Virus record (IMG/VR): IMGVR_UViG_3300006118_000005
Coordinates: 1-34,947 of that record
Length of the DNA stretch: 34,947 bases
DNA from: a virus
Taxonomy: Duplodnaviria; Caudoviricetes
Strand: one strand, 5' to 3'
The translations under genes were made by a program, and so were the position numbers. This document shows, piece after piece, positions 22,881 through 34,947 of the stretch; position 1 is the stretch's first letter, and each line of letters starts with the position of its first letter. Under the pieces are notes generated by a model. It was given only the letters and a program-made list of their open reading frames with translations. It was not told where the DNA came from and did no database searches.

Positions 22881-23059
22881 GGAAAAACGTAAATTTTTTT
22901 TGGGGGGAGATGGGAGGTGTACTCGCCCATAACCGAACTCAGGACCATTCGAGTTTTCAGGCATGAATTTGCGCAAAGCATTGCGACGCATTAGCCAATA
23001 ATTGACCATATTAAGTACGGCGCCGGGTATCGGTTTGCGTTAAGTGCTTTGCAAGCGTT

Positions 23060-23345
23060 ACCCCTATTAAATATTTGAGAGAATAGAATGTAATACTATT
23101 TTCTAGTTATCGTTTTATTTCAATTACTAATAATTCAATTAGCAAATATTCTTTTAATCAAATATTTTCTTATAAGTAATAATTGTATTAAACAATAATT
23201 ATATACGAATATTTGGTAATAGGAATATTCTATCAATAATTAAATATTCATACAAATATTTATTGAATATTGATATTGACATAATCATTCTAATCTATAT
23301 AATTCAACTATTGATTAAATAATTAGTCAATGCAATTATCCATAA
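23060..23345. other. Very AT-rich non-coding region with eight AATATT copies
   Basis: Composition seen directly. AATATT at 23070, 23145, 23161, 23208, 23224, 23243, 23255 and 23266. Confidence 0.8.
23276..23303 (+). promoter_or_regulatory. Consensus sigma70 early promoter for ardC
   Basis: TTGACA-N16-TATAAT with AT-rich upstream sequence. Confidence 0.85.
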
Positions 23346-23363
23346 CTAACCGGGAAAATCATC

Positions 23364-24871: not shown

Positions 24872-25006
24872 ATGAGCAAATTACCATTTGAGATTGAGGG
24901 CAAAGAACCCGAGACGATTACGCTAGACAAGGCGGATTTTATGATCTACCTAGCCGGGATGTTCGGGTTGGGTTTTGTACTCGCGCTACTCGCGTTTCGC
25001 GTATGA
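24872..25006 (+). CDS. Single-TM microprotein (44 aa)
   Basis: MSKLPFEIEGKEPETITLDKADFMIYLAGMFGLGFVLALLAFRV; TAAGGAG SD. Confidence 0.7.
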   Translation: MSKLPFEIEGKEPETITLDKADFMIYLAGMFGLGFVLALLAFRV

Positions 25007-25119
25007 TGGACGCCCTAGCCGACGGGTTCACGTTCGCGTGTGTGCTGTTGCTAGGGTTTGTCTTATGGCTAGGACTTTCCCTAATCGCAATTAAATTGTT
25101 ATCAGAGTTGGACCCTTGA
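25003..25119 (+). CDS. Single-TM microprotein (38 aa)
   Basis: MMDALADGFTFACVLLLGFVLWLGLSLIAIKLLSELDP; ATGA coupling. Confidence 0.6.
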   Translation: MMDALADGFTFACVLLLGFVLWLGLSLIAIKLLSELDP

Positions 25120-25121
25120 CC

Positions 25122-25298
25122 ATGATAAAAACCAATTGGCAACCCGTACCCGCTAAAAAACCCCGTACGCGTTCACGTTGTGAGGAGCTGGGGGTATGTC
25201 AACCAAACCCGGAAACGTGCCGTAAATGCCCCAATAAAAAGGCTATACGCGCGTCTAAGGATTTGCCGGTAAAGTTGTTCCCAATTTTATTTACATGA
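25122..25298 (+). CDS. Small Cys-containing basic protein
   Basis: RSRCEELGVCQ...CRKCP. ATG at 25122. Confidence 0.55.
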   Translation: MIKTNWQPVPAKKPRTRSRCEELGVCQPNPETCRKCPNKKAIRASKDLPVKLFPILFT

Positions 25299-25316
25299 TT
25301 AAATTTGTGGTATGAT
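25290..25316 (+). promoter_or_regulatory. Extended -10 promoter for the structured RNA region
   Basis: TGTGG-TATGAT (25306-25316) with TTTACA upstream. Confidence 0.6.
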
Positions 25317-25320
25317 TCGC

Positions 25321-25420
25321 GTGTTGTCGTAACGGTCAACAGTAGTTAAAGCGTTTACACATGCCTCTGTCCCTTTTATTTGGGAACCGTTACCGGGGGC
25401 AGTTGTAAGCGCTTTTTTTA
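25321..25420 (+). ncRNA. Structured RNA with loop-bulge complementarity and terminator (P4 CI / P1 C4-like architecture)
   Basis: Hairpin loop GTAACGGT (25329-36) is complementary to the 8-nt bulge ACCGTTAC (25386-93). Stems 25348-59/25404-15 and 25362-69/25394-401, followed by a U-tract. Confidence 0.6.
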
Positions 25421-25436
25421 TTGTCTAACCCATTAC

Positions 25437-25640
25437 GCGCAACCGCTCAGTCGTCGGGGAAACCAACGGCAAGGCTGAGGGACAAGGGACTATTGTGGGG
25501 AAGCTCTGAGACAGTTCCAAGGGTGGCGAGGCTAGTGCCCTAGAGTGAAAGACTGGCGGGTTATGCGCGGCTCCGTCCGAGTGTATGAAGGAAACCAAGC
25601 TATTCGCGGGGATGGCTAGGTTTTCGCTCACCATCCGAGT
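25437..25640 (+). ncRNA. Candidate multi-stem non-coding RNA
   Basis: Long-range stem 25437-52/25551-68 and hairpins 25520-41 and 25590-625, with many G-U pairs on the + strand. No credible sense ORF. Confidence 0.55.
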
Positions 25641-25680
25641 AGTTGATTTAATAATTAAATAATCGCTAATAAAAGAATAT

Positions 25681-25977
25681 ATGACTAAAGAAGAAATAAT
25701 TAGATTAGTTAAAAAAACTGATTTACTAGGAATCATTGATAGTCAATATTATGACAATGAACTATGGATTTTTGATGTAATGGAGTTTGCCAAGTTGGTG
25801 GCAAAGAGGGCGTTTACTGATGGTTTTTATGAAGGTTTTAAAGCATCTGGGGAAGGATGGAACGGGGAATATCCATTCAATGATAAAAACCTTGAAGTGC
25901 GAAACCATGCAAGTATTGTTGAAGATTTAGATGAATCGTGGAATAAATATATTTCAGGGGATAAACATGAAGATTGA
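25681..25977 (+). CDS. Hypothetical protein (nin-like region)
   Basis: 98 aa; MTKEEIIRL...EFAKLV module. Confidence 0.7.
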   Translation: MTKEEIIRLVKKTDLLGIIDSQYYDNELWIFDVMEFAKLVAKRAFTDGFYEGFKASGEGWNGEYPFNDKNLEVRNHASIVEDLDESWNKYISGDKHED

Positions 25978-26209
25978 TTTCGGCGAAACCCAATTAGAAA
26001 AGATACGCAGACTAGAAAAGCCTCATCGGTGGTTTGCATGGTATCCGGTAGAGGTAGGACACCATGACCATAGGTGGCTCGAATACGTTGAGCGTACTGG
26101 TTATCAATACTTTACCTTTGTTGAGTTTGGTTTTTATTGGTGTTGGACGTATAAAGCAATACCCAAAACTGTTGGGGATTTAGTAAAGGAAGATACACAT
26201 GGACATTGA
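25967..26209 (+). CDS. Hypothetical protein
   Basis: Start MKIDFG at 25967 (AGGGGATAAAC). Contains the HRWFAWYPV...RWLEYVER phage motif. Confidence 0.75.
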   Translation: MKIDFGETQLEKIRRLEKPHRWFAWYPVEVGHHDHRWLEYVERTGYQYFTFVEFGFYWCWTYKAIPKTVGDLVKEDTHGH

Positions 26210-26504
26210 TTTAATTTACCTAGTTGCTGAGAAGCTGGACAACATGGATTGTTTGCGCCGCAGTGATGAGACGGTCCTAACCGCCGCCAGTAATTTATTA
26301 CGCGACTTTGTGCGCGAGTTGGATATGGCGAGAATGTCACTGGATGAGCTAGTCAAACAGCAAAATACGCGCGTATGGCATGGTCTGACAGAGGCTGAAC
26401 GTAACGATGTAGTCTGGTCCAATACCCGCGCAGATGACATTAAGGAAGCGTATGACGTTGCAGTGGCTATTGAGCAAGCATTAAGGGAGAAGAACAATGG
26501 GTGA
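26199..26504 (+). CDS. Hypothetical protein
   Basis: 101 aa; WHGLTEAE...AIEQALREKN module. Confidence 0.75.
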   Translation: MDIDLIYLVAEKLDNMDCLRRSDETVLTAASNLLRDFVRELDMARMSLDELVKQQNTRVWHGLTEAERNDVVWSNTRADDIKEAYDVAVAIEQALREKNNG

Positions 26505-26697
26505 TATGGCTGAAGTATTTAATGAATGGAAAGCATATAAAAAAGAACGCAAACAGAGACTTGGTATGCCTTGCCCTGATTGCACAATTAAATTGCCAAA
26601 AGCGCAACCAAAAATTCTTATGCCAAACCAAAAGTGCTGGTGCGGTTATATAGACAAGCGACAAAGAGAAGCCAAACTCAAGGAGAAGAACACATGA
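26497..26697 (+). CDS. Small Zn-finger-like protein
   Basis: CPDC...CWCG. Confidence 0.7.
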   Translation: MGDMAEVFNEWKAYKKERKQRLGMPCPDCTIKLPKAQPKILMPNQKCWCGYIDKRQREAKLKEKNT

Positions 26698-26891
26698 ACC
26701 AAAATACGACGCTAGAGGCTTTAATTTACAACCGGGAGGCTAGGCTTAGGTCCCAGTTAAAAAAGGAGCATACGCTTGTTTTAAGGGCTAGGCTGGACGA
26801 AATACTACTGATGAAGCGCAAGCTAAAGGAATTAAACCCAGATTCAATCTTGTGGCGCAAACGACAAATACTATCGGAAGGAGACAAATGA
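26694..26891 (+). CDS. Hypothetical protein
   Basis: Start MNQNTT at 26694 (AAGGAG SD, ATGA overlap). Confidence 0.7.
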   Translation: MNQNTTLEALIYNREARLRSQLKKEHTLVLRARLDEILLMKRKLKELNPDSILWRKRQILSEGDK

Positions 26892-26903
26892 TTAAAAAAT
26901 ACA

Positions 26904-26932
26904 ATGACTAATCATCATAACTGTGCTACATT
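26904..26932 (+). promoter_or_regulatory. Putative sigma70 promoter of the recombination operon
   Basis: ATGACT-N17-TACATT with extended -10 TG. Confidence 0.55.
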
Positions 26933-26971
26933 ATCTACTCTTGTTCCATTATTAACTAACCGGGGATTATT

Positions 26972-27196
26972 ATGAATATCGTTGAGATAGAACCTTACAC
27001 AGAGGTCAAGCTGTGCGTTAACTGCAAATGGATGATGACCAGCGACGAGTGGCAACCCAAATGCAAAGCATCCGAAAGACGCGATCTAGTCACGGGTGAA
27101 TATCAATACTACTACTGCAAGACCGAAAGAGAGTGGGATACACCCAATGGTTGCGGTAAAGACGGCAAAAACTACGAACCTAACATTGAGGGGTAA
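26972..27196 (+). CDS. Cys-rich hypothetical protein
   Basis: KLCVNCKW...CKA...YCKTER...CGKDG. Confidence 0.75.
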   Translation: MNIVEIEPYTEVKLCVNCKWMMTSDEWQPKCKASERRDLVTGEYQYYYCKTEREWDTPNGCGKDGKNYEPNIEG

Positions 27197-27199
27197 ACC

Positions 27200-27415
27200 A
27201 TGGGAAGACCTACATTACAAGTCACTCGCCTACAAAAAGAGCTGAAGGATTGGATTTCTATTGCTGAGGACAATACCGCCAAACTGGACGACGCAACAAA
27301 CAAGTACGAACAAACCAGAGATGAGCTGGTTAAAGCGGAAAAGACCATAGAGTCTTTAATCTATCAACGGGCGCACCTCATCGCGCTCATCAATATCTTA
27401 ACCAAGGGGAAGTAA
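27200..27415 (+). CDS. Coiled-coil hypothetical protein
   Basis: 71 aa; GAGGGG SD. Confidence 0.75.
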   Translation: MGRPTLQVTRLQKELKDWISIAEDNTAKLDDATNKYEQTRDELVKAEKTIESLIYQRAHLIALINILTKGK

Positions 27416-28318
27416 ATGGCTAACGACAGAGCAGACTTTGAACCAGAGTTTCGCAATCAATACTGGTGGGCAACCGATTCCGCTGAGGCGGCTAAGGGCA
27501 ACGCCAATGATGTGGTGCTAACGAAAATAGGCGCTAAACCGCCGAAGGACCTAAGCCACATTGAGGCTGTGCAAATGGGTCATGTCATGCAACCTATCAT
27601 CGGACGGCTTGCACAAGACCGGCTCAAGGTAGAGCTGAAGGACGCTGACTACATGATGACACATCCTAAAGAATCATGGATGCGTTCACACTTTGACTTT
27701 ATATCCGCTGACGGAAAAATGCTTGTTGAGGCTAAGAACTACTCGGCTATGACCAGAAACAAGTACGACGCAGAAAGCGGCATCATACCGGCGTTCAACA
27801 TGGCGCAACTCATTCATCAATCGGCTTGCCACAACATCGAGCATCTGGTCCTAGCTGTGCTCTTTGGTGGTCAAGAGTTCCAAGTGTTTCAGTTCCACAT
27901 CACTGAGCAAATGCGCGACCAGTTGGTCAAGGACATGGCTAAGTTTTGGGCGGCTGTACAAACCAAGACACCACTGGACCCCGAGACAACAGAGCACACC
28001 AAGCTCATGTACAAGGCGGACGCCGGAACAGTGACAGTGGCTAATGCTCAAGTCGTACAAATTGCTGAGACGCTAAAGAACATCAAGGCGCAGATCAAGC
28101 AAATGGAGGAGGATGAGGACAAGCTACAAACCGCACTACAAAGCTATATGCAAAACCATGCGGAGTTGGTAGGCGTTGACGGCTCGGTCCTAGCGACATG
28201 GCGGTCTAGCAAGGCATCCAAGCGCTTTAATGCTGAAGTCTTTAAGTCCGCTATGCCCGACATTTACGAGCAGTTTGTATTTGAAACACCCGGCTCTAGG
28301 AGGTTTTTACTCAAATGA
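27416..28318 (+). CDS. YqaJ / lambda-exonuclease family nuclease
   Basis: AVQMGHVMQPII, RSHFDF...LVEAKN (PD-(D/E)xK) and QLIHQ. Close to the annealase gene. Confidence 0.85.
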   Translation: MANDRADFEPEFRNQYWWATDSAEAAKGNANDVVLTKIGAKPPKDLSHIEAVQMGHVMQPIIGRLAQDRLKVELKDADYMMTHPKESWMRSHFDFISADGKMLVEAKNYSAMTRNKYDAESGIIPAFNMAQLIHQSACHNIEHLVLAVLFGGQEFQVFQFHITEQMRDQLVKDMAKFWAAVQTKTPLDPETTEHTKLMYKADAGTVTVANAQVVQIAETLKNIKAQIKQMEEDEDKLQTALQSYMQNHAELVGVDGSVLATWRSSKASKRFNAEVFKSAMPDIYEQFVFETPGSRRFLLK

Positions 28319-28506
28319 AAGCATTTCCAACATCAATGAACGAAGGATACCCACAAATTATTCAAGGCGGCATGGACTTGCGAGACTGGTTTGCAGGGCA
28401 AGTATTACCTACGTTGATAGGCGGAGCGGGAATGGAAGACATTACAAAAGCCGCTTATAAATGGGCAGACGCAATGATGAAAGCAAGGGAGAATAAAGAT
28501 GAGTAA
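28315..28506 (+). CDS. Conserved small phage protein
   Basis: GMDLRDWFAGQ...AYKWADAMMKAR motif. Confidence 0.8.
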   Translation: MKAFPTSMNEGYPQIIQGGMDLRDWFAGQVLPTLIGGAGMEDITKAAYKWADAMMKARENKDE

Positions 28507-29401
28507 CCTAACACTTAGACAAGGCTTTGCGCCCCAAACCATGAATGAGGCAATTCAGTTCTCTGAGATGCTCTCCAAGTCTCAGATGGTCCCAAAACAA
28601 TATCAGAACAAACCTGAGGATATTTTGGTGGCTGTGCAGTGGGGCTATGAAATTGGATTAGCACCCATGCAAGCACTCCAAAACATTAGCGTCATCAACG
28701 GGCGCCCCAGTGTTTATGGAGACGCCGCCATGGCTTTGGTCCAGTCTAGCCCAGCTTGCGAGGACATCGAGGAGTTCATGGAGGCTGAGGGCACACCGAA
28801 CCCGGTGGCTGTCTGTATTGCTAAGAGAAAAGGACGCAAACCCGTCACTGCTAAATTCTCTGTGGAAGACGCCAAACGCGCTAATCTGTGGGGCAAACAA
28901 GGTCCTTGGACCCAGTATCCTAAACGTATGCTTCAGATGAGGGCTAGAGGCTTTGCTTTGCGCGACGCTTTCCCAGACGTCCTCAAGGGGCTAATTACTG
29001 CTGAGGAGGCACAAGACTACCCTAGCGACACTGTCGAGGCTCCTAAGCCCATTCCAAGGGCTGTGGAAGTGCTTGAGCAGTTTGAGGACGAACCGCCCGA
29101 GGGATACATTTCTCTCTTTGTGCCAAACAACCCCGACCCCTATTCATGGCACCCGGACACCGCTTCATGGATTAAGGCTTATCAACATCTTGTCCACAAA
29201 ATCAATTCTTTTCAAAAGCTCACCGCTGAGGAAAAACAAGAAAAGATTTGGGGGCTAGAGAAAGCTAACGCCGAAGTGGTTGAAGGCTTTGATAGTTTTG
29301 ACCGAGTCAAGCTCAAAGCGGCTATTGCTGAAGTTGGGGTTGACCCGTTAAAAAAGCCGCCAGTGTCTCAAGACGAGGTACCCAGCGAGAGCGAATCTTG
29401 A
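28499..29401 (+). CDS. recT: RecT-like single-strand annealing protein (0-frame product)
   Basis: GYEIGLAPMQALQNISVINGRP, AKRANLW...GPWTQYPKRML..RARGFALRDAFPD. Confidence 0.8.
   Translation: MSNLTLRQGFAPQTMNEAIQFSEMLSKSQMVPKQYQNKPEDILVAVQWGYEIGLAPMQALQNISVINGRPSVYGDAAMALVQSSPACEDIEEFMEAEGTPNPVAVCIAKRKGRKPVTAKFSVEDAKRANLWGKQGPWTQYPKRMLQMRARGFALRDAFPDVLKGLITAEEAQDYPSDTVEAPKPIPRAVEVLEQFEDEPPEGYISLFVPNNPDPYSWHPDTASWIKAYQHLVHKINSFQKLTAEEKQEKIWGLEKANAEVVEGFDSFDRVKLKAAIAEVGVDPLKKPPVSQDEVPSESES
29336..29381 (+). promoter_or_regulatory. Programmed -1 ribosomal frameshift signal (dnaX-type)
   Basis: SD-like GGGGT (29336-40), A_AAA_AAG in the RecT frame (29350-56), 6-nt spacer, then hairpin GTGTCTC-aagac-GAGGTAC (29363-81). 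Confidence 0.7.
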
Positions 29402-29589
29402 GGCACCTACAAAGTGGAAAAACAATCACACCACTTGAAGCACTCGAACAATTTGGTTGTTTCCGGCTTGCATCCCATATCGAAGTTTATCGAAAAGCAG
29501 GACACAGAATCTTTACAAAAATGGTTAGTGACGGCGGCAAAGAGTACGCCGAATACAAATATTTATCAGGAGAAACCGCGAATGGCTAG
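29356..29589 (+). CDS. Winged-helix/HTH domain, probably expressed as the -1 frameshift extension of RecT
   Basis: TQRERILRHLQSGKTITPLEALEQFGCFRLASHI. The frame is open from 29344 with no start codon before a mid-helix TTG at 29398. Confidence 0.7.
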   Translation, partial: AASVSRRGTQRERILRHLQSGKTITPLEALEQFGCFRLASHIEVYRKAGHRIFTKMVSDGGKEYAEYKYLSGETANG

Positions 29590-29842
29590 TAACTATCAAC
29601 CCGTAGAAAGTAAGGGCATACTCACGCCGAGCGCCTACTTGCAGAAACAAAACCCTAAGGCTCCCGACTTTAAGGGCAAAATCATGCACAAAGGCGAAGT
29701 GATTAACATATCCGCTTGGTGGCGTAAATCCCAGTACGGCGAGTTCTTAACGCTTGCTGTGGACACTTATCAACCGCCTGTCAACACACAGACTTATCCC
29801 CGGGAAGTAACGCCCAGAGGGGATGAGGACGTACCCTTTTGA
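29582..29842 (+). CDS. Putative single-stranded DNA-binding protein
   Basis: Start MASNYQ at 29582 (AGGAG SD). KAPDFKG...ISAW and the acidic C-terminal DEDVPF tail. Confidence 0.7.
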   Translation: MASNYQPVESKGILTPSAYLQKQNPKAPDFKGKIMHKGEVINISAWWRKSQYGEFLTLAVDTYQPPVNTQTYPREVTPRGDEDVPF

Positions 29843-29848
29843 TGCCCG

Positions 29849-29924
29849 GTCCCCGTAGTTCAATGGATGAGAATACGATGCTACGAACGTCGAGATGGAG
29901 GTTCGATTCCTCCCGGGGGCGCCA
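29849..29924 (+). tRNA. tRNA-Arg(ACG)
   Basis: 76-nt cloverleaf: acceptor GTCCCCG/CGGGGGC, anticodon arm CGATG-ctACGaa-CGTCG, T-arm GGAGG-ttcgatt-CCTCC, encoded CCA. Confidence 0.93.
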
Positions 29925-30302
29925 ATGAAGGCTATTCTGGTATTGCCGCTGAGTCCGAGCACCAACACCTATTACCGCAAATACAACAATATTATGGTGA
30001 TAGGTGCTGAAGGCAGAGCATTTAGGAAGGCTGTGCAAGAGTACGTTTTAGTCAACAAGATACCTAAGTTCAGGGACAGAAAATTGAAAATAACAATGGT
30101 GATTAGTCCAAGGGACAAGAGAAAGATTGACATTGATAACCGCATCAAAGCAGTTCTCGATTCCTTGCAAAAGGCTGGTGTATTCGATGATGATTTCCAT
30201 GTGGACCATTTAGAAATGATTCGCGGCGAAGTCATCAAAGGAGGACAGCTACTGGTCACGATAGAGGAAATACCCCCCATCAACTCAGAGGTGAGTCCCT
30301 AA
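29925..30302 (+). CDS. rusA: RusA-family Holliday junction resolvase
   Basis: LPLSPSTNTYY...PRDKRKIDIDNRIKAVLDSL..AGVFDDD. Confidence 0.9.
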   Translation: MKAILVLPLSPSTNTYYRKYNNIMVIGAEGRAFRKAVQEYVLVNKIPKFRDRKLKITMVISPRDKRKIDIDNRIKAVLDSLQKAGVFDDDFHVDHLEMIRGEVIKGGQLLVTIEEIPPINSEVSP

Positions 30303-30370
30303 GGGACAGTTAGGAAACTTACGGGGCAGAGGTTCTGAGTAGCCCCACCAACAATCAACCAAGGAAAACC

Positions 30371-31153
30371 ATGTCAAAAGATAAAGTCGTATCCATCAAA
30401 TCCGCAGAGAAACCGCCCGTTCATCTGTACATTGCAACACCTATGTACGGCGGTATGTGCGCAGGATTTTATACACAGTCTATCCTCAACCTACAAAACG
30501 TTTTTAAGAACACCGGCTGGACACTGAGCTTCTCATTCATGTTCAATGAGTCTTTGATACCAAGGGCTAGAAACGCGCTTGTACAAGGCTTTTTGAAAAG
30601 CGGCGCAACTCACATGATGTTTATTGACGCTGACATCAAATTTGAAGCAAGTCACATTATCCACATGGTTGAGGCAGACAAGGAGATTCTTTGCGGCATC
30701 TATCCCAAGAAGGAAATCAACTGGGATTCCGCTAAGAAAGCTATGGACGCCGGAGTACCCAACGACCAACTCAAACACTTTACTGGTTCATTTGTGGTTA
30801 ATCTTGTGGATTACTCCAACGAAGTCACTGTGCCTGTCAATAAGCCTGTGGAAATCTGGAACGGCGGTACCGGCTTCATGATGATTAAGCGCGAAGTGTT
30901 TGACAACCTTGCAGACAAAGTGCCTGAGTACACCAACAACATTATGGACCTATCCGGCACACTGAAGGCAGATACCATCAAAGAATACTTTGCAACCAGT
31001 ATTGAGGAAGAAACAAAGATACTGCTCTCAGAGGATTATCACTTTTGCAAACTGGCTAGAAAACACGGCATGAAGGTTTGGGCGGCTCCTTGGGCGCAAC
31101 TCGGACACATCGGTACTTATCTCTTTGAAGGTCAACTCACACCATCGCCATGA
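30371..31153 (+). CDS. GT-A fold glycosyltransferase-like protein
   Basis: IATPMYGG, NESLIPRARN, FIDADI (DxD), GTGFMMIKR and SEDYHFC. Confidence 0.75.
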   Translation: MSKDKVVSIKSAEKPPVHLYIATPMYGGMCAGFYTQSILNLQNVFKNTGWTLSFSFMFNESLIPRARNALVQGFLKSGATHMMFIDADIKFEASHIIHMVEADKEILCGIYPKKEINWDSAKKAMDAGVPNDQLKHFTGSFVVNLVDYSNEVTVPVNKPVEIWNGGTGFMMIKREVFDNLADKVPEYTNNIMDLSGTLKADTIKEYFATSIEEETKILLSEDYHFCKLARKHGMKVWAAPWAQLGHIGTYLFEGQLTPSP

Positions 31154-31839
31154 TTAACCACTTTACTGTTGTAGAGTCTATTTACGGGAAAATCATAGTT
31201 AATCGCAACTGTGATTTTCAAATAGATGCTCTTGCTAAAACCGGCAAAACTCATATAGAACATGAGTTGTATAACATTTTTCAATTTGTGGATAATTTGC
31301 CGCCAGATGCTATTGTCATAGACGCCGGTGCAAACATAGGGTTGTTCAGCATCCCTGTTGCACAAAGACGCAAAGACATTACGCTGATTGCTTTTGAACC
31401 TCAAAGAATTATTTATAACGCTTTATGCGGCTCTGTTGCGCTGAATGACATCAACAATATTTTTGTACACAACAAAGCAATTACAGAGCTTGTGAGCTAT
31501 GTTGTCTTGCCGTCTGTTGATTACAGCATGAAGATGGATTACGGCATGGTTAGAGTTCAACCGGGTCTTACTGACGAAAATATGTATATGCGCAACTTTA
31601 TGGTTGACGGCGTATCTATTGATTCTTTGAAGTTACCCAGATGCGACTTTATCAAGATTGACGTAGAAGGCTTTGAGATACAAGCCATCAAGGGCGCTAG
31701 AAAGACCATAGAGACGTTTAAGCCAATACTATGGGTTGAGTACCATATTGTTGGCATGGACGCCATTTGTAAAGCCGTTGGTGAAGGTTATACCTTTATT
31801 ATGGCGGACCCACTTAATATGGTCTGTGTTCCGTCTTGA
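31150..31839 (+). CDS. FkbM-family methyltransferase
   Basis: VIDAGANIGLFS, AFEPQ and FIKIDVEGFE. Confidence 0.92.
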   Translation: MINHFTVVESIYGKIIVNRNCDFQIDALAKTGKTHIEHELYNIFQFVDNLPPDAIVIDAGANIGLFSIPVAQRRKDITLIAFEPQRIIYNALCGSVALNDINNIFVHNKAITELVSYVVLPSVDYSMKMDYGMVRVQPGLTDENMYMRNFMVDGVSIDSLKLPRCDFIKIDVEGFEIQAIKGARKTIETFKPILWVEYHIVGMDAICKAVGEGYTFIMADPLNMVCVPS

Positions 31840-31868
31840 AGATAAATTGGAAAGAAGTATTGATATTT

Positions 31869-31899
31869 CTGGGGTGCTTGCTAGTAGTTTGCGCCCCAG
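31869..31899. terminator. Hairpin between convergent operons
   Basis: CTGGGGTGC...GCGCCCCAG. Poor U-tract on either strand. Confidence 0.4.
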
Positions 31900-32142
31900 T
31901 TATCTGCATTTCCATCGTCTCAAGGATGCCTTGGCTCTTGTCGCTGGTCCCTTGGATTTCTTAACCACACCTTTCATCCGTGCGCAAAATGAATTATGAC
32001 GACTCCCTTTTGACTGAGGAGCTTTTAGTTTGCTTCCTGTCGCTCTATTTAATTTGGCTCGACCCTTCGCTGTTAGACCAGCACCCCGTTTTGTCGATAA
32101 TTTTTCTCCTCGCTTTACTGATAGGCTGGTTGATTTAGTCAT
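31900..32142 (-). CDS. Small basic protein (DUF6321-like)
   Basis: GLTAKGRAK...LKAPQ...SFCARMKG...SLRRWKC. Confidence 0.75.
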   Translation of the reverse strand: MTKSTSLSVKRGEKLSTKRGAGLTAKGRAKLNRATGSKLKAPQSKGSRHNSFCARMKGVVKKSKGPATRAKASLRRWKCR

Positions 32143-32666
32143 TTGATTCCTAAATAGTTACGCACTTGGTCAAGTATTTGAAGTTGTTCAGGGGTGTACA
32201 TTTGTTTGGCATCTTTCCATTGGTCAAATGTATATCCTCTAAACATTTCAGGAACACCAGTCATTTTTGACCATTCTTCTGGCGACCTTTTTTCTCCTAA
32301 GTGTTGCTTATGAAACAAATATCTATTTTGCATCATCTTTGGGTCAAGAGACTGCTGAAATTTTTGATAAAGCTCTTGCAGTTTAGGGTCCGTATTTACG
32401 CCGTAATGACTTACATAATCACCTAATATATCAATAGGTTTTGTTTTTGAATTGAATACTTCAATTGCAACTTTATTATTTTTAGCCCAGCTAGGTAAAT
32501 CACCGCCCTGATAAAACTCAAGCATATATTTAGGCTTTGCCTGAGGAGAATACTTGTAAGCAATATCTTTATCCGCCAAATACGGATATTGTTCTTTGGC
32601 TACGTCTAATAATCTTGGGTCGTTTTGTTGAGCAACCAAGTTCATTATTTCTTTATCGTTAGCCAA
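32139..32666 (-). CDS. Hypothetical protein
   Basis: 175 aa, coupled to the endolysin gene. Confidence 0.75.
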   Translation of the reverse strand: MANDKEIMNLVAQQNDPRLLDVAKEQYPYLADKDIAYKYSPQAKPKYMLEFYQGGDLPSWAKNNKVAIEVFNSKTKPIDILGDYVSHYGVNTDPKLQELYQKFQQSLDPKMMQNRYLFHKQHLGEKRSPEEWSKMTGVPEMFRGYTFDQWKDAKQMYTPEQLQILDQVRNYLGIK

Positions 32667-33078
32667 TTTGCTTTCCTTCTTTCAGTTCAGCAAGCGTTAA
32701 GCCGCCGGTGTATTGGAAATGAGCAAGCTCTTTGAAGTGGACCCACTTACCCGCCCACTCTAGTCCAGCTTGTTCGCCAAGCTCTCCTACTTTACTCCAT
32801 ACTGGGTGGCTTCCGTCCCAGTCTGGTTTACCAGCCACCAAAGGCACAACATCCACAGCGCAACGCCAATTATGGAATGAATCACCGCCTTTAGCATTTG
32901 TAACGATTTTGCCTTCTGTTGTTCGTCCTTGGGCATACAAAGCATCCTGACTTTCAATATCACGATATGTGCTTGTAATAAGTAAGTCAATATCAGATTC
33001 TTTGCACAACTGTATAAAGTGTTCAACACGGCTTTTAACTTCTGGAAGTAATTCATTTAAGTCTCTTGAGTTAATCAT
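32659..33078 (-). CDS. Endolysin, M15 family (L-Ala-D-Glu peptidase-like)
   Basis: TYRDIESQDALYAQGRT...VTNAKGGDSFHNWRCAVD...WAGKW...ELAHFQ. Confidence 0.9.
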   Translation of the reverse strand: MINSRDLNELLPEVKSRVEHFIQLCKESDIDLLITSTYRDIESQDALYAQGRTTEGKIVTNAKGGDSFHNWRCAVDVVPLVAGKPDWDGSHPVWSKVGELGEQAGLEWAGKWVHFKELAHFQYTGGLTLAELKEGKQIG

Positions 33079-33575
33079 TTTGACCCCGCTGGAGTAGATT
33101 GATGCAGTAGCTGGTCCTTAGCTTGTGAACCAGCAGAACTACCAAAATAAAAAGCAACAACACCTGTCCAAGCAGTTCCTAATGAACCCAACATAATGTC
33201 AATTTGAGGCGTATGTTGCACTTGACCATACATTAAGCCAAAAAGTATTCCGAAAAACCCGCCTGTAATACCTATCGCAAGAATAGGAGGTATCCAAGAT
33301 TGAGTTGCAATCTGCATTGTTCTTGCAGAGCTTCTATCTTGTACAGCCAATTGCTCAAAGTCTAAACCTAGTTCTTGTGCCTTGGCTTTTAATTGAATCT
33401 CGGCTTGCTGAACGCTTGCAATCTGGTCTGCGGTGAGTTTGCCATCATCAAGCATTTTCTTTGCATCGTCTTGAGAAACTCCAAGCACTTTTGATACTGC
33501 TTCATACGCTAATCCTCCGAATGGACCGCCAAGGGCAGTGGCTATTGTGGGTGCAATTTGAGCTAACCAGTTCAT
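33075..33575 (-). CDS. Holin (3TM, gene-transfer-agent holin-like)
   Basis: Start MNWLAQIAPTIATALGGP at 33575 (TAAGGA SD). DRSSAR, two TM segments and FYFGSSAGS. Adjacent to the endolysin. Confidence 0.75.
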   Translation of the reverse strand: MNWLAQIAPTIATALGGPFGGLAYEAVSKVLGVSQDDAKKMLDDGKLTADQIASVQQAEIQLKAKAQELGLDFEQLAVQDRSSARTMQIATQSWIPPILAIGITGGFFGILFGLMYGQVQHTPQIDIMLGSLGTAWTGVVAFYFGSSAGSQAKDQLLHQSTPAGSK

Positions 33576-33576
33576 G

Positions 33577-33837
33577 TCAATCCTTACAATATTTTGGCAA
33601 GTACCCTGTATCTCTAAAGATTTTGTAGCACTCGATTTCCTTACTATTTTCCTCGAATTTCCTGTGAAACTCAATATACCAACGTTCCTCTCGCTTTCTC
33701 TCCTCTGTCCACAAGTGGATTTGGTACATCAAGCCGCCAATGGTGAACGCCACGACAAATACTGCAATACAGATTGCGACGCCAATCTTGATTTGATCGT
33801 GTCGCATACGCCTTTCGTATGATTCGAGGACATCCTT
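33577..33837 (-). CDS. TM-containing segment, probable -1 frameshift extension of 33729..34223
   Basis: The -1 frame continues KDVLESYERR-MRHDQIKIGVAICIAVFVVAFTIGGLMY from the A9 run at 33844-33836. Confidence 0.65.
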   Translation of the reverse strand, partial: KDVLESYERRMRHDQIKIGVAICIAVFVVAFTIGGLMYQIHLWTEERKREERWYIEFHRKFEENSKEIECYKIFRDTGYLPKYCKD

Positions 33838-34223
33838 TTTTTTTGCGCCTTGTCTAGTGCGTCTTGTTCTTTAACCAGTCTTGCTTTTTCTGCTTCAAAC
33901 TCGGTCCAAACAGCGCCAAGCTCAGGAGGAGATTCATAGACCAGCATTTGACGCAAGTCGTACTCAGCTTGTTCTAGTTGTTTTTTGCGCAGTACGTTCT
34001 CTAAGGCAATAGCTTGTAATGATTTTCCCTTAGGTGGGTTTTTCTTTAGCTCTGCGTCTGCTTTTTTAGCCGCGTCTTGATGGTCAAAAAAAGAGCCAAG
34101 TGCGCCACTTAGCTCATTAACAATTTGAACAACTTCCCCGCCTGTTTGTTTTATCTCCTTGTAGGCGGCGACTCCGCTTTTGACCGCGGAGAACGCCATC
34201 ATGGCAAGGGTAAACGGGTCCAT
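33729..34223 (-). CDS. Coiled-coil protein in the lysis cassette (0-frame product)
   Basis: MDPFTLAMMAFSAVKSG...; the helical pattern breaks down after AQKK. Confidence 0.75.
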   Translation of the reverse strand: MDPFTLAMMAFSAVKSGVAAYKEIKQTGGEVVQIVNELSGALGSFFDHQDAAKKADAELKKNPPKGKSLQAIALENVLRKKQLEQAEYDLRQMLVYESPPELGAVWTEFEAEKARLVKEQDALDKAQKKRMSSNHTKGVCDTIKSRLASQSVLQYLSWRSPLAA

Positions 34224-34408
34224 TACTGCGCGGGAGGTGCTGGAGGAGTTACGGTGTATCCGTTAGAAGTTAATAAAGCAATTGCGTCTTCAATCTTTTG
34301 CTCACCTTCAACATACTCAGCAAACTGCTTGGCAACATTGTGTTCGGTAGATTCCACAGATGCTCCAATCTTAGTAATAAAGTTTTGAAAATATTCTTGA
34401 ATGTTCAT
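34223..34408 (-). CDS. Hypothetical protein
   Basis: 61 aa, coupled at both ends. Confidence 0.7.
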   Translation of the reverse strand: MNIQEYFQNFITKIGASVESTEHNVAKQFAEYVEGEQKIEDAIALLTSNGYTVTPPAPPAQ

Positions 34409-34752
34409 AGTCCTTCTCCGGGTGTGATGTAAACAGTTGTTGTGCCAATAGAAATGACACGGGCATAAACGTTAGCTGTTGCGCTGACTTGCGGCGCTGT
34501 AACAACTTTCTGGTCAAAAGGAAGCACTGGAAACACTTGCTGACTCACTGTGTTTGTAGGCAAAGCAACGTTGAATGTACTGCTGGTGCTGATTTGCACA
34601 AAAGCCACATTAACAGTGTCTTGGTTTGTCAGCAAATACTGTTGGCAAGGTGTGTTTGCGGTTATGGTGCTCACAGTCGATTGCGAGTTGGCGGCACTAG
34701 CCACACAAGCAACCGTGTTGCCCATAGCCTGAAAAGCAATATTATTAGCCAT
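34405..34752 (-). CDS. Small beta-rich virion protein (paralogue of 8330..8668)
   Basis: 115 aa, ends YITPGEGL. Confidence 0.7.
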   Translation of the reverse strand: MANNIAFQAMGNTVACVASAANSQSTVSTITANTPCQQYLLTNQDTVNVAFVQISTSSTFNVALPTNTVSQQVFPVLPFDQKVVTAPQVSATANVYARVISIGTTTVYITPGEGL

Positions 34753-34947
34753 TAGTACACCTTTTTGCCGCCGCCAGAGGTAGGAGATAGCTTAGTGCTG
34801 TCTGAACCTTCAGAAAAATCAAATACGGTCCTGTAACCGCCTTTTGGCATTGTGCCGGGTGTCCATCTGTTTTGACCCATTTGGGTGTTGTCAGACGGCT
34901 TTTGAGGGCGAACTGCATGAGCGTACTTTTGCCCCCAGTTCAAATTG
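34752..34947 (-). CDS. 3' part of the 82-aa junction-spanning protein
   Basis: In frame with the ATG at 173 through the terminal repeat. Confidence 0.85.
   Translation of the reverse strand, partial: NLNWGQKYAHAVRPQKPSDNTQMGQNRWTPGTMPKGGYRTVFDFSEGSDSTKLSPTSGGGKKVY
34828..34947. repeat. Terminal direct repeat, copy 2
   Basis: Identical to 1-120. Confidence 0.97.

Follow-up and report, generated by a model that had tools for sequence, protein, structure and literature searches.

The structured non-coding tract that precedes the recombination genes of this complete tailed-phage genome belongs to a catalogued RNA family without assigned function, Rfam RF02932 (Betaproteobacteria-1), and is not a new class of RNA. 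All positions given below are those of the window, that is, the whole 34,947-nucleotide stretch of DNA that was analysed. Besides family membership, the analysis established a knotted fold on the plus strand, a 3′ extension of the element, a co-varying direct repeat, the architecture of an upstream leader, the exchange of the surrounding cassette between relatives and the lack of any recognisable replication protein in the genome. The explanation that we favour, tentatively and at slightly less than even confidence, is that the RNA may be an R-loop-forming origin or primer RNA working like ColE1 RNA II.

The tract is a member of Rfam family RF02932

The RF02932 covariance model was matched over its whole length (positions 1-120 of 120) by the 5′ knotted core of the tract at 25443..25561 on the plus strand, with a score of 78.5 bits (E 5e-13) lying above the gathering score of 49.4. 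Since the full model matched, the new class of non-coding RNA offered as one possibility by the original prediction does not hold for the 5′ 120 bases. The same prediction had allowed that membership in a known Rfam family of other function would speak against an origin; the family is indeed a known one, yet its Rfam entry is typed Gene; sRNA with no function assigned, and thus no other function stands against that idea. We take the family to go back to a survey of 224 motifs. Literature searches by family name and by accession RF02932 found no paper on the family; the name Betaproteobacteria-1 was not found in the main text of PMC5737381, the supplement of which lay outside the search, and the available part of the Minerva preprint (10.64898/2026.09.22.753630) held no mention of the RNA family.

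A pattern built on the core retrieved 95 viral loci, with 76 distinct cores including that of the window, to which were added 16 full-length hits from 65 genome loci, together with phage AP1 and one Burkholderia chromid. Fifteen of the 16 full-length GTDB hits were labelled Betaproteobacteria and one was a Devosia MAG. Conservation among the homologues showed that the element reaches ~25640, ~80 bases past the end of the Rfam model. The sequence strings on which the original prediction was built were all found at their positions, and the tract is G-rich as described (G fraction 0.35 vs 0.23 in the window). Position 25530 is a G in the window, whereas almost every homologue, along with three lake runs, has an A there. 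The possibility that a 103-aa minus-strand frame (25425-25736) is coding was considered and rejected, the frame having no family match and the homologues showing only short scattered shadow frames.

Comparative evidence supports a knotted fold on the plus strand

Seven helices were supported by both mutual information (71 sequences, mean identity 58%) and pair counts (53 sequences). Across the 53 sequences, 94% of 1617 cells were paired under the seven-helix model and 24 of 31 pairs were compensatory, a level that none of 500 shuffles reached and that compares with 32-45% in slid controls; because the core pattern fixed some columns and the fold was derived from the sequences on which it was scored, the invariant pairs among these are uninformative. 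At the 5′ end, P1 (25446-52/25473-79), pseudoknot PK1 (25469-72/25493-96) and P2 (25486-91/25513-18) were 94-98% paired, with all 13 aligned pairs compensatory. P1 corresponds to the pairing CTCAGTC/GGCTGAG, which had been read as an alternative structure; the pairing is real (5/5 aligned pairs compensatory) but is the first helix of the fold rather than an alternative to it. Pseudoknot PK2 (25503-07/25542-46) and two mutually crossing helices, P3a (25520-24/25537-41) and P3 (25531-36/25552-57), were likewise supported by mutual information or pair counts. The predicted hairpin at 25520-41 exists, its outer 5 pairs being conserved, and P3a contains a U.G pair that becomes C.A in 2 of the 53 sequences.

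All three hairpins modelled in RF02932 are present here, and the corresponding helices P1, P2 and P3 were 94-98% paired with compensatory changes. The Rfam model differs from the element described here in that it ends ~80 bases early and lacks PK1, PK2 and P3a, as well as the repeat and the leader described below. The 3′ extension past the model (25558..25640, plus strand), conserved in alignments, consists of P5 (25562-66/25581-85; 99% paired), conserved motifs and a P6 hairpin of variable register (25590-605/25610-625). The P6 region had z-scores below -1.5 in 49 of 53 sequences and, in the window, forms the hairpin foreseen at 25590-625, with 15 pairs and one mismatch. G.U cells are frequent, which argues for function on the plus strand. 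Folded alone, the tract was no more stable than shuffled sequences (z -1.15; not significant on either strand), and the structural support is comparative. RNAalifold, which cannot model knots, returned only P1, P2 and P3a.

Two features on which the original prediction had relied were not retained by the homologues. The long closing stem pairs in this copy by chance, 55% of cells being paired across 53 homologues and 377 of 500 shuffles scoring as high. The AT palindrome ATTTAAT-A-ATTAAAT is present at 25646..25660, but just 1 locus among the 343 fetched had it, and its reading as a conserved unwinding site was accordingly rejected; a lake contig carrying the RNA also departs from the window at 25644, before the palindrome. 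A possible long-range pairing (25522-26/25628-32) was supported by a compensatory change in one sequence (L319) but disrupted in another (L297), and it clashes with P3a. An extra-stable DNA mini-hairpin was also considered within the invariant core; this candidate was dismissed, its inner pairs not being retained in hits found without the pattern, and it was therefore not used as evidence for single-stranded DNA.

A direct repeat co-varies within the 3′ extension

The 3′ extension carries two copies of a short direct repeat on the plus strand, copy A in the P5 loop (25573..25582) and copy B at the 3′ end (25631..25640). The repeat word varies between phages, and A and B agree within each. Cognate copies scored 6.3 against 3.3 for non-cognate ones (p<1e-4 at 54, 42 and 29 clusters; 69 of 71 sequences parsed), the reverse-complement control was flat, and a cis complement of the repeat was not in excess (10 of 60 vs 6.6 expected). 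Two loci (L039, L071) bear matched insertions in both copies. In the main subtype, aligned as 41 pairs in 27 clusters after 6 of 47 had been left out for offsets, A/B identity was 0.73-1.0 over about 8-9 positions after the anchor and then fell to ~0.3.

Mismatches between the copies were directional. In the main subtype, G in A facing A in B accounted for 17 clade events and the reverse for none (p 1.5e-5), the other mismatches comprising T/C (4 vs 1) and 15 transversions; in a wider set (52 of 72 usable) the G/A direction was 26 vs 2. Towards its start, copy B is rich in A; conditioned on A in B, the G excess in A was not significant (p 0.12). Exactly these mismatches would be tolerated if copy A of the RNA paired with the template strand at B. 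Copy A is likely a guide that would pair with template DNA, and copy B its likely target on the template strand, the lake contig mentioned above keeping the RNA through B to 25644. G skew is seen over the 60 bases downstream (0.28 vs 0.07) and is counted in favour of an origin.

A likely promoter and attenuator precede the RNA

Reading of the sequence points to a likely extended -10 promoter (TG-n-TATGAT) at 25308..25316 on the plus strand, with irregular -35 spacing. Similar -10 hexamers were seen by eye at the same place in homologues; a consensus promoter scan did not list the site. Behind it lies a leader of ~100 bases (25322..25419, plus strand) that folds well (z -4.6) and comprises a segment X (25329-36) complementary to X′ (25386-93), a terminator stem (25348-25415) and a U-tract (25413-19). 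Short prefixes of the leader folded with X:X′ paired, sequestering the 5′ arm of the terminator, and longer prefixes formed the terminator. The X:X′ complementarity co-varies: across 29 distinct leaders it measured 7.4 nt for cognate segments compared to 4.7 nt otherwise, and permutations reached 5.7 at most. The leader is likely an attenuator that would control read-through into the RNA. Of 73 loci with enough flank, 43 had no adjacent primase and 30 had one; a leader terminator was present in 30 of the former and 4 of the latter. No minus-strand promoter-like site from which an antisense RNA might start was found over the RNA, and promoter-like sites in the region were at chance level (10 vs 12.1).

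The phage genome encodes no recognisable replication protein

The window is a complete tailed-phage genome, as had been predicted, the circle being closed by a 120-base terminal repeat; the IMG/VR record assigns it to the direct-terminal-repeat class, at 100% completeness. Most of the region was present in 20 freshwater or lake DNA runs. Among the 23 runs listed, no RNA run holding the stretch was found, a result that speaks neither for nor against expression. Virion genes occupy the minus strand. The plus strand carries ArdC, small genes and the RNA tract, followed, downstream of the cassette, by recombination genes at 27416..30302 (RecE-like, RecT-like, a small HTH_39 gene, SSB-like and RusA). 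The HTH_39 protein was named by an atlas search and has no assigned role; a tRNA gene lies at 29849-29921, between the SSB-like gene and RusA.

The claim that no replication protein is recognisable was confirmed by ORF and six-frame searches. No initiator, primase, helicase, loader or polymerase was detected in 60 ORFs with Pfam and PHROGs, no replication protein in 30 ORFs against NCBIfam, and none of nine families (DnaB_C, Toprim_3, Prim-Pol, IstB/DnaC, HTH_36, Phage_rep_O, DNA_pol_A, D5_N, phrog_678) in six-frame searches of the genome. As many small ORFs are still unnamed, a novel initiator may exist. Another candidate origin within the window is the divergent region near 23030-23360 (28% GC), which lies between divergent operons and holds a perfect sigma-70 promoter (23276-23303) and several inverted repeats. 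A strand-skew test at four-fold sites gave the predicted sign in 5 of 8 genomes.

The RNA often lies beside replication genes

The gene context of the RNA was scored in 84 distinct loci, some of the queries used to define context families having come from the counted loci themselves. The RNA lay near replication genes in 50 of these: 34 loci placed it directly after a Toprim primase, in an operon of ParB-like, SF2 helicase and primase genes, 7 elsewhere near an SF2 helicase or primase, and 9 close to replication genes of other kinds (O-like in 6, T7-like primase-helicase in 2 and ColE2-type Rep in 1). In cultured phage AP1 the order is repressor, ParB-like, helicase, primase and then the RNA, which is the lambdoid order. 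No replication gene was found within 4.5 kb in 25 loci (14 with full flanks; 6 in bacterial chromosomes or a chromid), and 9 were too short to judge. The link to primase is not obligate: 21 of 69 distinct primase loci carry the RNA, a figure that becomes 10 of 58 once the seed set is left aside. Other non-coding tracts are found in many of the remaining primase loci, several of them behind a similar leader.

Strict mutual exclusivity with initiator genes, which the original prediction had proposed to test, does not hold. In two genomes (G007, G008), which also encode an HTH_36 initiator, the RNA belongs to the capsid operon and precedes the capsid gene; in L039 and L071 the RNA is closely followed by an O-like or primosomal gene. 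An apparent set of six near-complete carriers without an initiator (150 of 273 representatives scanned) was corrected by the HTH_36 search. HNH-type genes adjoin the RNA in L029, L243 and L184, and no gene accompanies it in all contexts.

Diverged copies with long P5 insertions occur in bacterial chromosomes and a chromid (L184, L187, L199, L204, L230, L234, L178), where their neighbours are mostly genes of defence, restriction and transposons; the repeat can be made out in most of these copies, and L204 lies upstream of a ColE2-type replicase. Proteins of 109-143 aa corresponding to only the C-terminal part of O-like initiators (G001 27032-27289, G013, G014, L177:8601-8984) adjoin either the RNA or the sister cassette described below, and are absent from the window.

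The RNA occupies an exchangeable slot

Comparison with relative L097 and with lake contigs delineated an exchangeable cassette at 25124..25680, consisting of a small Cys-rich ORF, the promoter, the leader and the RNA. From 25681 to 34947 (9.3 kb), L097 matches the window at 100% identity, but it has a different leader and tract. In lake contigs the depth fell between 25132 and 25671, and loose ends were found at 25123 and 25681. The Cys-rich ORF (60 aa, 25116-25298) is shared only with the closest RNA-bearing relatives (2 loci clustered).

Among relatives found through RecE, the RNA was present in none of 80 loci. DnaA boxes were sought in the slot; of 36 distinct relatives with at least 2 kb upstream, 9 had 2-3 clustered perfect boxes and 4 had one, other relatives having different non-coding tracts. 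Stand-alone clusters of 2-3 boxes lie beside AT-rich DNA 300-800 bases before RecE in L112, L119, L130, L134, L139, L140, L157 and L163, and ~1850 bases before it in L109. It is possible that these clusters are phage origins driven by host DnaA. No initiator gene was found in the two whole genomes of this group that were checked (G020, G021); the O-like family was not found in G000, G009 and G020-G023, nor HTH_36 or DnaB in G000, G009 and G020-G022. The G007 initiator gene contains an internal DnaA-box pair of the same kind as in the slot.

Further non-coding tracts were observed in this slot and in that following primase genes. A sister cassette stands in place of the RNA, downstream of a leader of the same type (L097:150-385; L177:9110-9365; L345, L349, L357, L366, L371, L374, L378); it had no Rfam match in the members scanned and, by eye, has an imperfect direct repeat at its end (in L097, the copies are 53 bases apart), with about ten true members. 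A test of that repeat gave p 0.14, the 37 distinct pattern hits being mostly chance matches. A third family, sharing a short motif by eye, was seen in relatives of this phage (L111, L154, L167, L171) and after primase (L293, L298), lying behind a leader and terminator in both settings, the relatives concerned being primase-less. The first 400 bases after the primase stop hold further structured-looking families (L299, L306, L320, L334, L339, L341, L342; L276, L277; L282, L285), none of the five scanned having an Rfam match. Yet another tract, G-rich on the minus strand and followed by short AT-rich repeats, lies 400-1100 bases before RecE in L113, L116, L117, L118, L121, L123, L158, L164 and L174.

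A possible role in priming replication

We read the RNA as a putative origin because of its position after primase genes, its exchange with DnaA-box clusters, the co-varying repeat with its wobble asymmetry and the upstream attenuator. The RNA-primed origin of the original prediction, still a candidate, gains independent support from these features; the stem and palindrome cited for it are unconserved. Host RNA polymerase would start at 25308-16, and the leader would pass a fraction of transcripts beyond the terminator; in other phages, the RNA would be made as the tail of the helicase-primase operon. The core would then fold and present copy A in a loop. As the polymerase passes copy B, and with copy B of the RNA itself partly sequestered in P6, copy A would pair with the template strand at B over ~9-10 bases, G.T wobbles allowed, and nucleate a persistent R-loop. 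RNase H or another cut would yield a 3′ end for host Pol I or, alternatively, helicase and primase of the host or the phage would be recruited to the displaced strand. Counted against an origin are the initiators kept by G007, G008, L039 and L071, the absence of the RNA from most primase loci, the 25 of 84 loci without a nearby replication gene, the second origin candidate at 23030-23360 and the HTH_39 protein.

Other roles were weighed against the same evidence. Put-type antiterminator RNAs bind RNA polymerase and suppress downstream terminators, and the RNA might similarly bind or reset the polymerase at copy B (through pausing, antitermination or re-initiation) and so drive downstream genes. 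In this phage it follows a promoter and attenuator and precedes an operon, which would suit such a role, as would its position before the capsid gene in G007 and G008 despite their encoded initiator, and the 9 positions of the repeat approximate the polymerase RNA-DNA hybrid, which is given as ~10 nt in the accessible part of PMC5043065. Transcription control, however, leaves unexplained the exchange with DnaA-box clusters, the junction right at primase stop codons and the chromosomal-island copies without a close co-oriented gene behind them, and we consider it unlikely. Somewhat less likely again is that the element acts as a ribozyme, or else supplies the RNA component of a small mobile cassette disseminated by HNH nucleases encoded nearby; A and B would then be two similar substrate sites for cleavage or circularisation. 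Nested pseudoknots, invariant unpaired bases and the U.G to C.A wobble are what a ribozyme might show, and the patchy spread, the cassette exchange and the HNH-type neighbours of three loci are what a mobile element might show; yet no ribozyme or intron family matched at E<=5, the variable repeat has no partner inside the RNA, and this phage's cassette has no HNH gene. A ribozyme step could also form part of the R-loop origin explanation.

That the element acts as folded single-stranded DNA, either as a priming signal on the displaced strand or as a slipped-strand structure between A and B, appears quite improbable to us. The adjacent primases would fit, and covariation does not separate RNA from single-stranded DNA, as noted in the main text of PMC5737381; against this, 30 of the 43 loci that lack an adjacent primase have a dedicated promoter and terminator leader, the many G.U cells occur on one strand only and the wobble asymmetry runs one way. 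We give equally little weight to A and B being two binding sites for one protein or trans RNA, with the element a trans-acting small RNA as Rfam types it: two matched sites would suit a dimeric protein and the 60-aa Cys-rich ORF travels in the cassette, but no single gene accompanies the RNA in every context, the repeat word differs between close relatives, and L097 swaps the cassette against identical downstream genes.

Relation to known systems

As a putative origin, the element would work like that of ColE1 and be placed like those of Inc18 plasmids, but it is a member of neither group. As far as the available parts of PMC5043065 and PMC4412123 describe it, ColE1 RNA II shares with the element a folded non-coding transcript, which is predicted here, and the lack of an element-encoded initiator, the latter holding in this genome but not in G007, G008, L039 or L071. 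ColE1 needs an rG stretch pairing with a dC stretch of the template (PMC4412123, in the part available), and an internal stretch would likewise be predicted here to pair with template DNA near the 3′ end. Going by the same parts of these sources, the systems differ in length (~200 bases vs 550 in ColE1), in the pairing word, variable here and a G-tract in ColE1, in their control, apparently by an upstream attenuator here and by antisense RNA I in ColE1, and in setting, the element occurring in phages, often beside helicase and primase. No ColE1 RNA I or RNA II Rfam match was found at E<=5 in 24900-25800. The Inc18 origins of pIP501 and pAM-beta-1, as covered by the available text of PMC4981023, lie directly downstream of a replication gene, need transcription through the origin and use leader attenuation, an arrangement that the element would parallel; in contrast to the element, with its large knotted RNA, they need a RepR/RepE protein and a 52-bp origin. 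No RepR/RepE-type initiator was found upstream in the window, the upstream genes elsewhere being SF2 helicase and Toprim primase.

The leader alone is reminiscent of the phage P4 CI RNA/seqA leader (available part of PMC4825925), in that an upstream segment complementary to an exposed leader segment is coupled to premature termination ahead of replication functions; such a segment and a terminator are both present here. Unlike P4 CI, the leader has no Rfam match and no second downstream target was seen. The R-loop origins of phage T4, in the part of PMC4412123 consulted, also combine a phage promoter with a downstream element forming an R-loop, which here is predicted, but use an unwinding element and T4's own replisome, with no conserved knotted RNA described there.

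The extension, the knots, the repeat, the wobble direction, the leader and the slot exchange were not found in print, the survey supplement being outside the search. With them, an orphan Rfam family gains a longer knotted structure and a proposed, testable mechanism, and the slot that it occupies also houses further uncatalogued non-coding families. We regard as rather doubtful the broader proposal of a class of protein-free phage origins in which a knotted RNA with a variable 9-10-base guide would be re-threaded onto its own DNA and prime replication, possibly cutting itself, as one of several interchangeable non-coding cassettes replacing an initiator gene. The RNA may nonetheless provide a possible answer to how complete freshwater phages without a replication gene begin copying their DNA. 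If true, ColE1-style RNA priming would extend to tailed phages, with a phage-specific guide word, and small, mutually compatible replicons for Betaproteobacteria would become conceivable.
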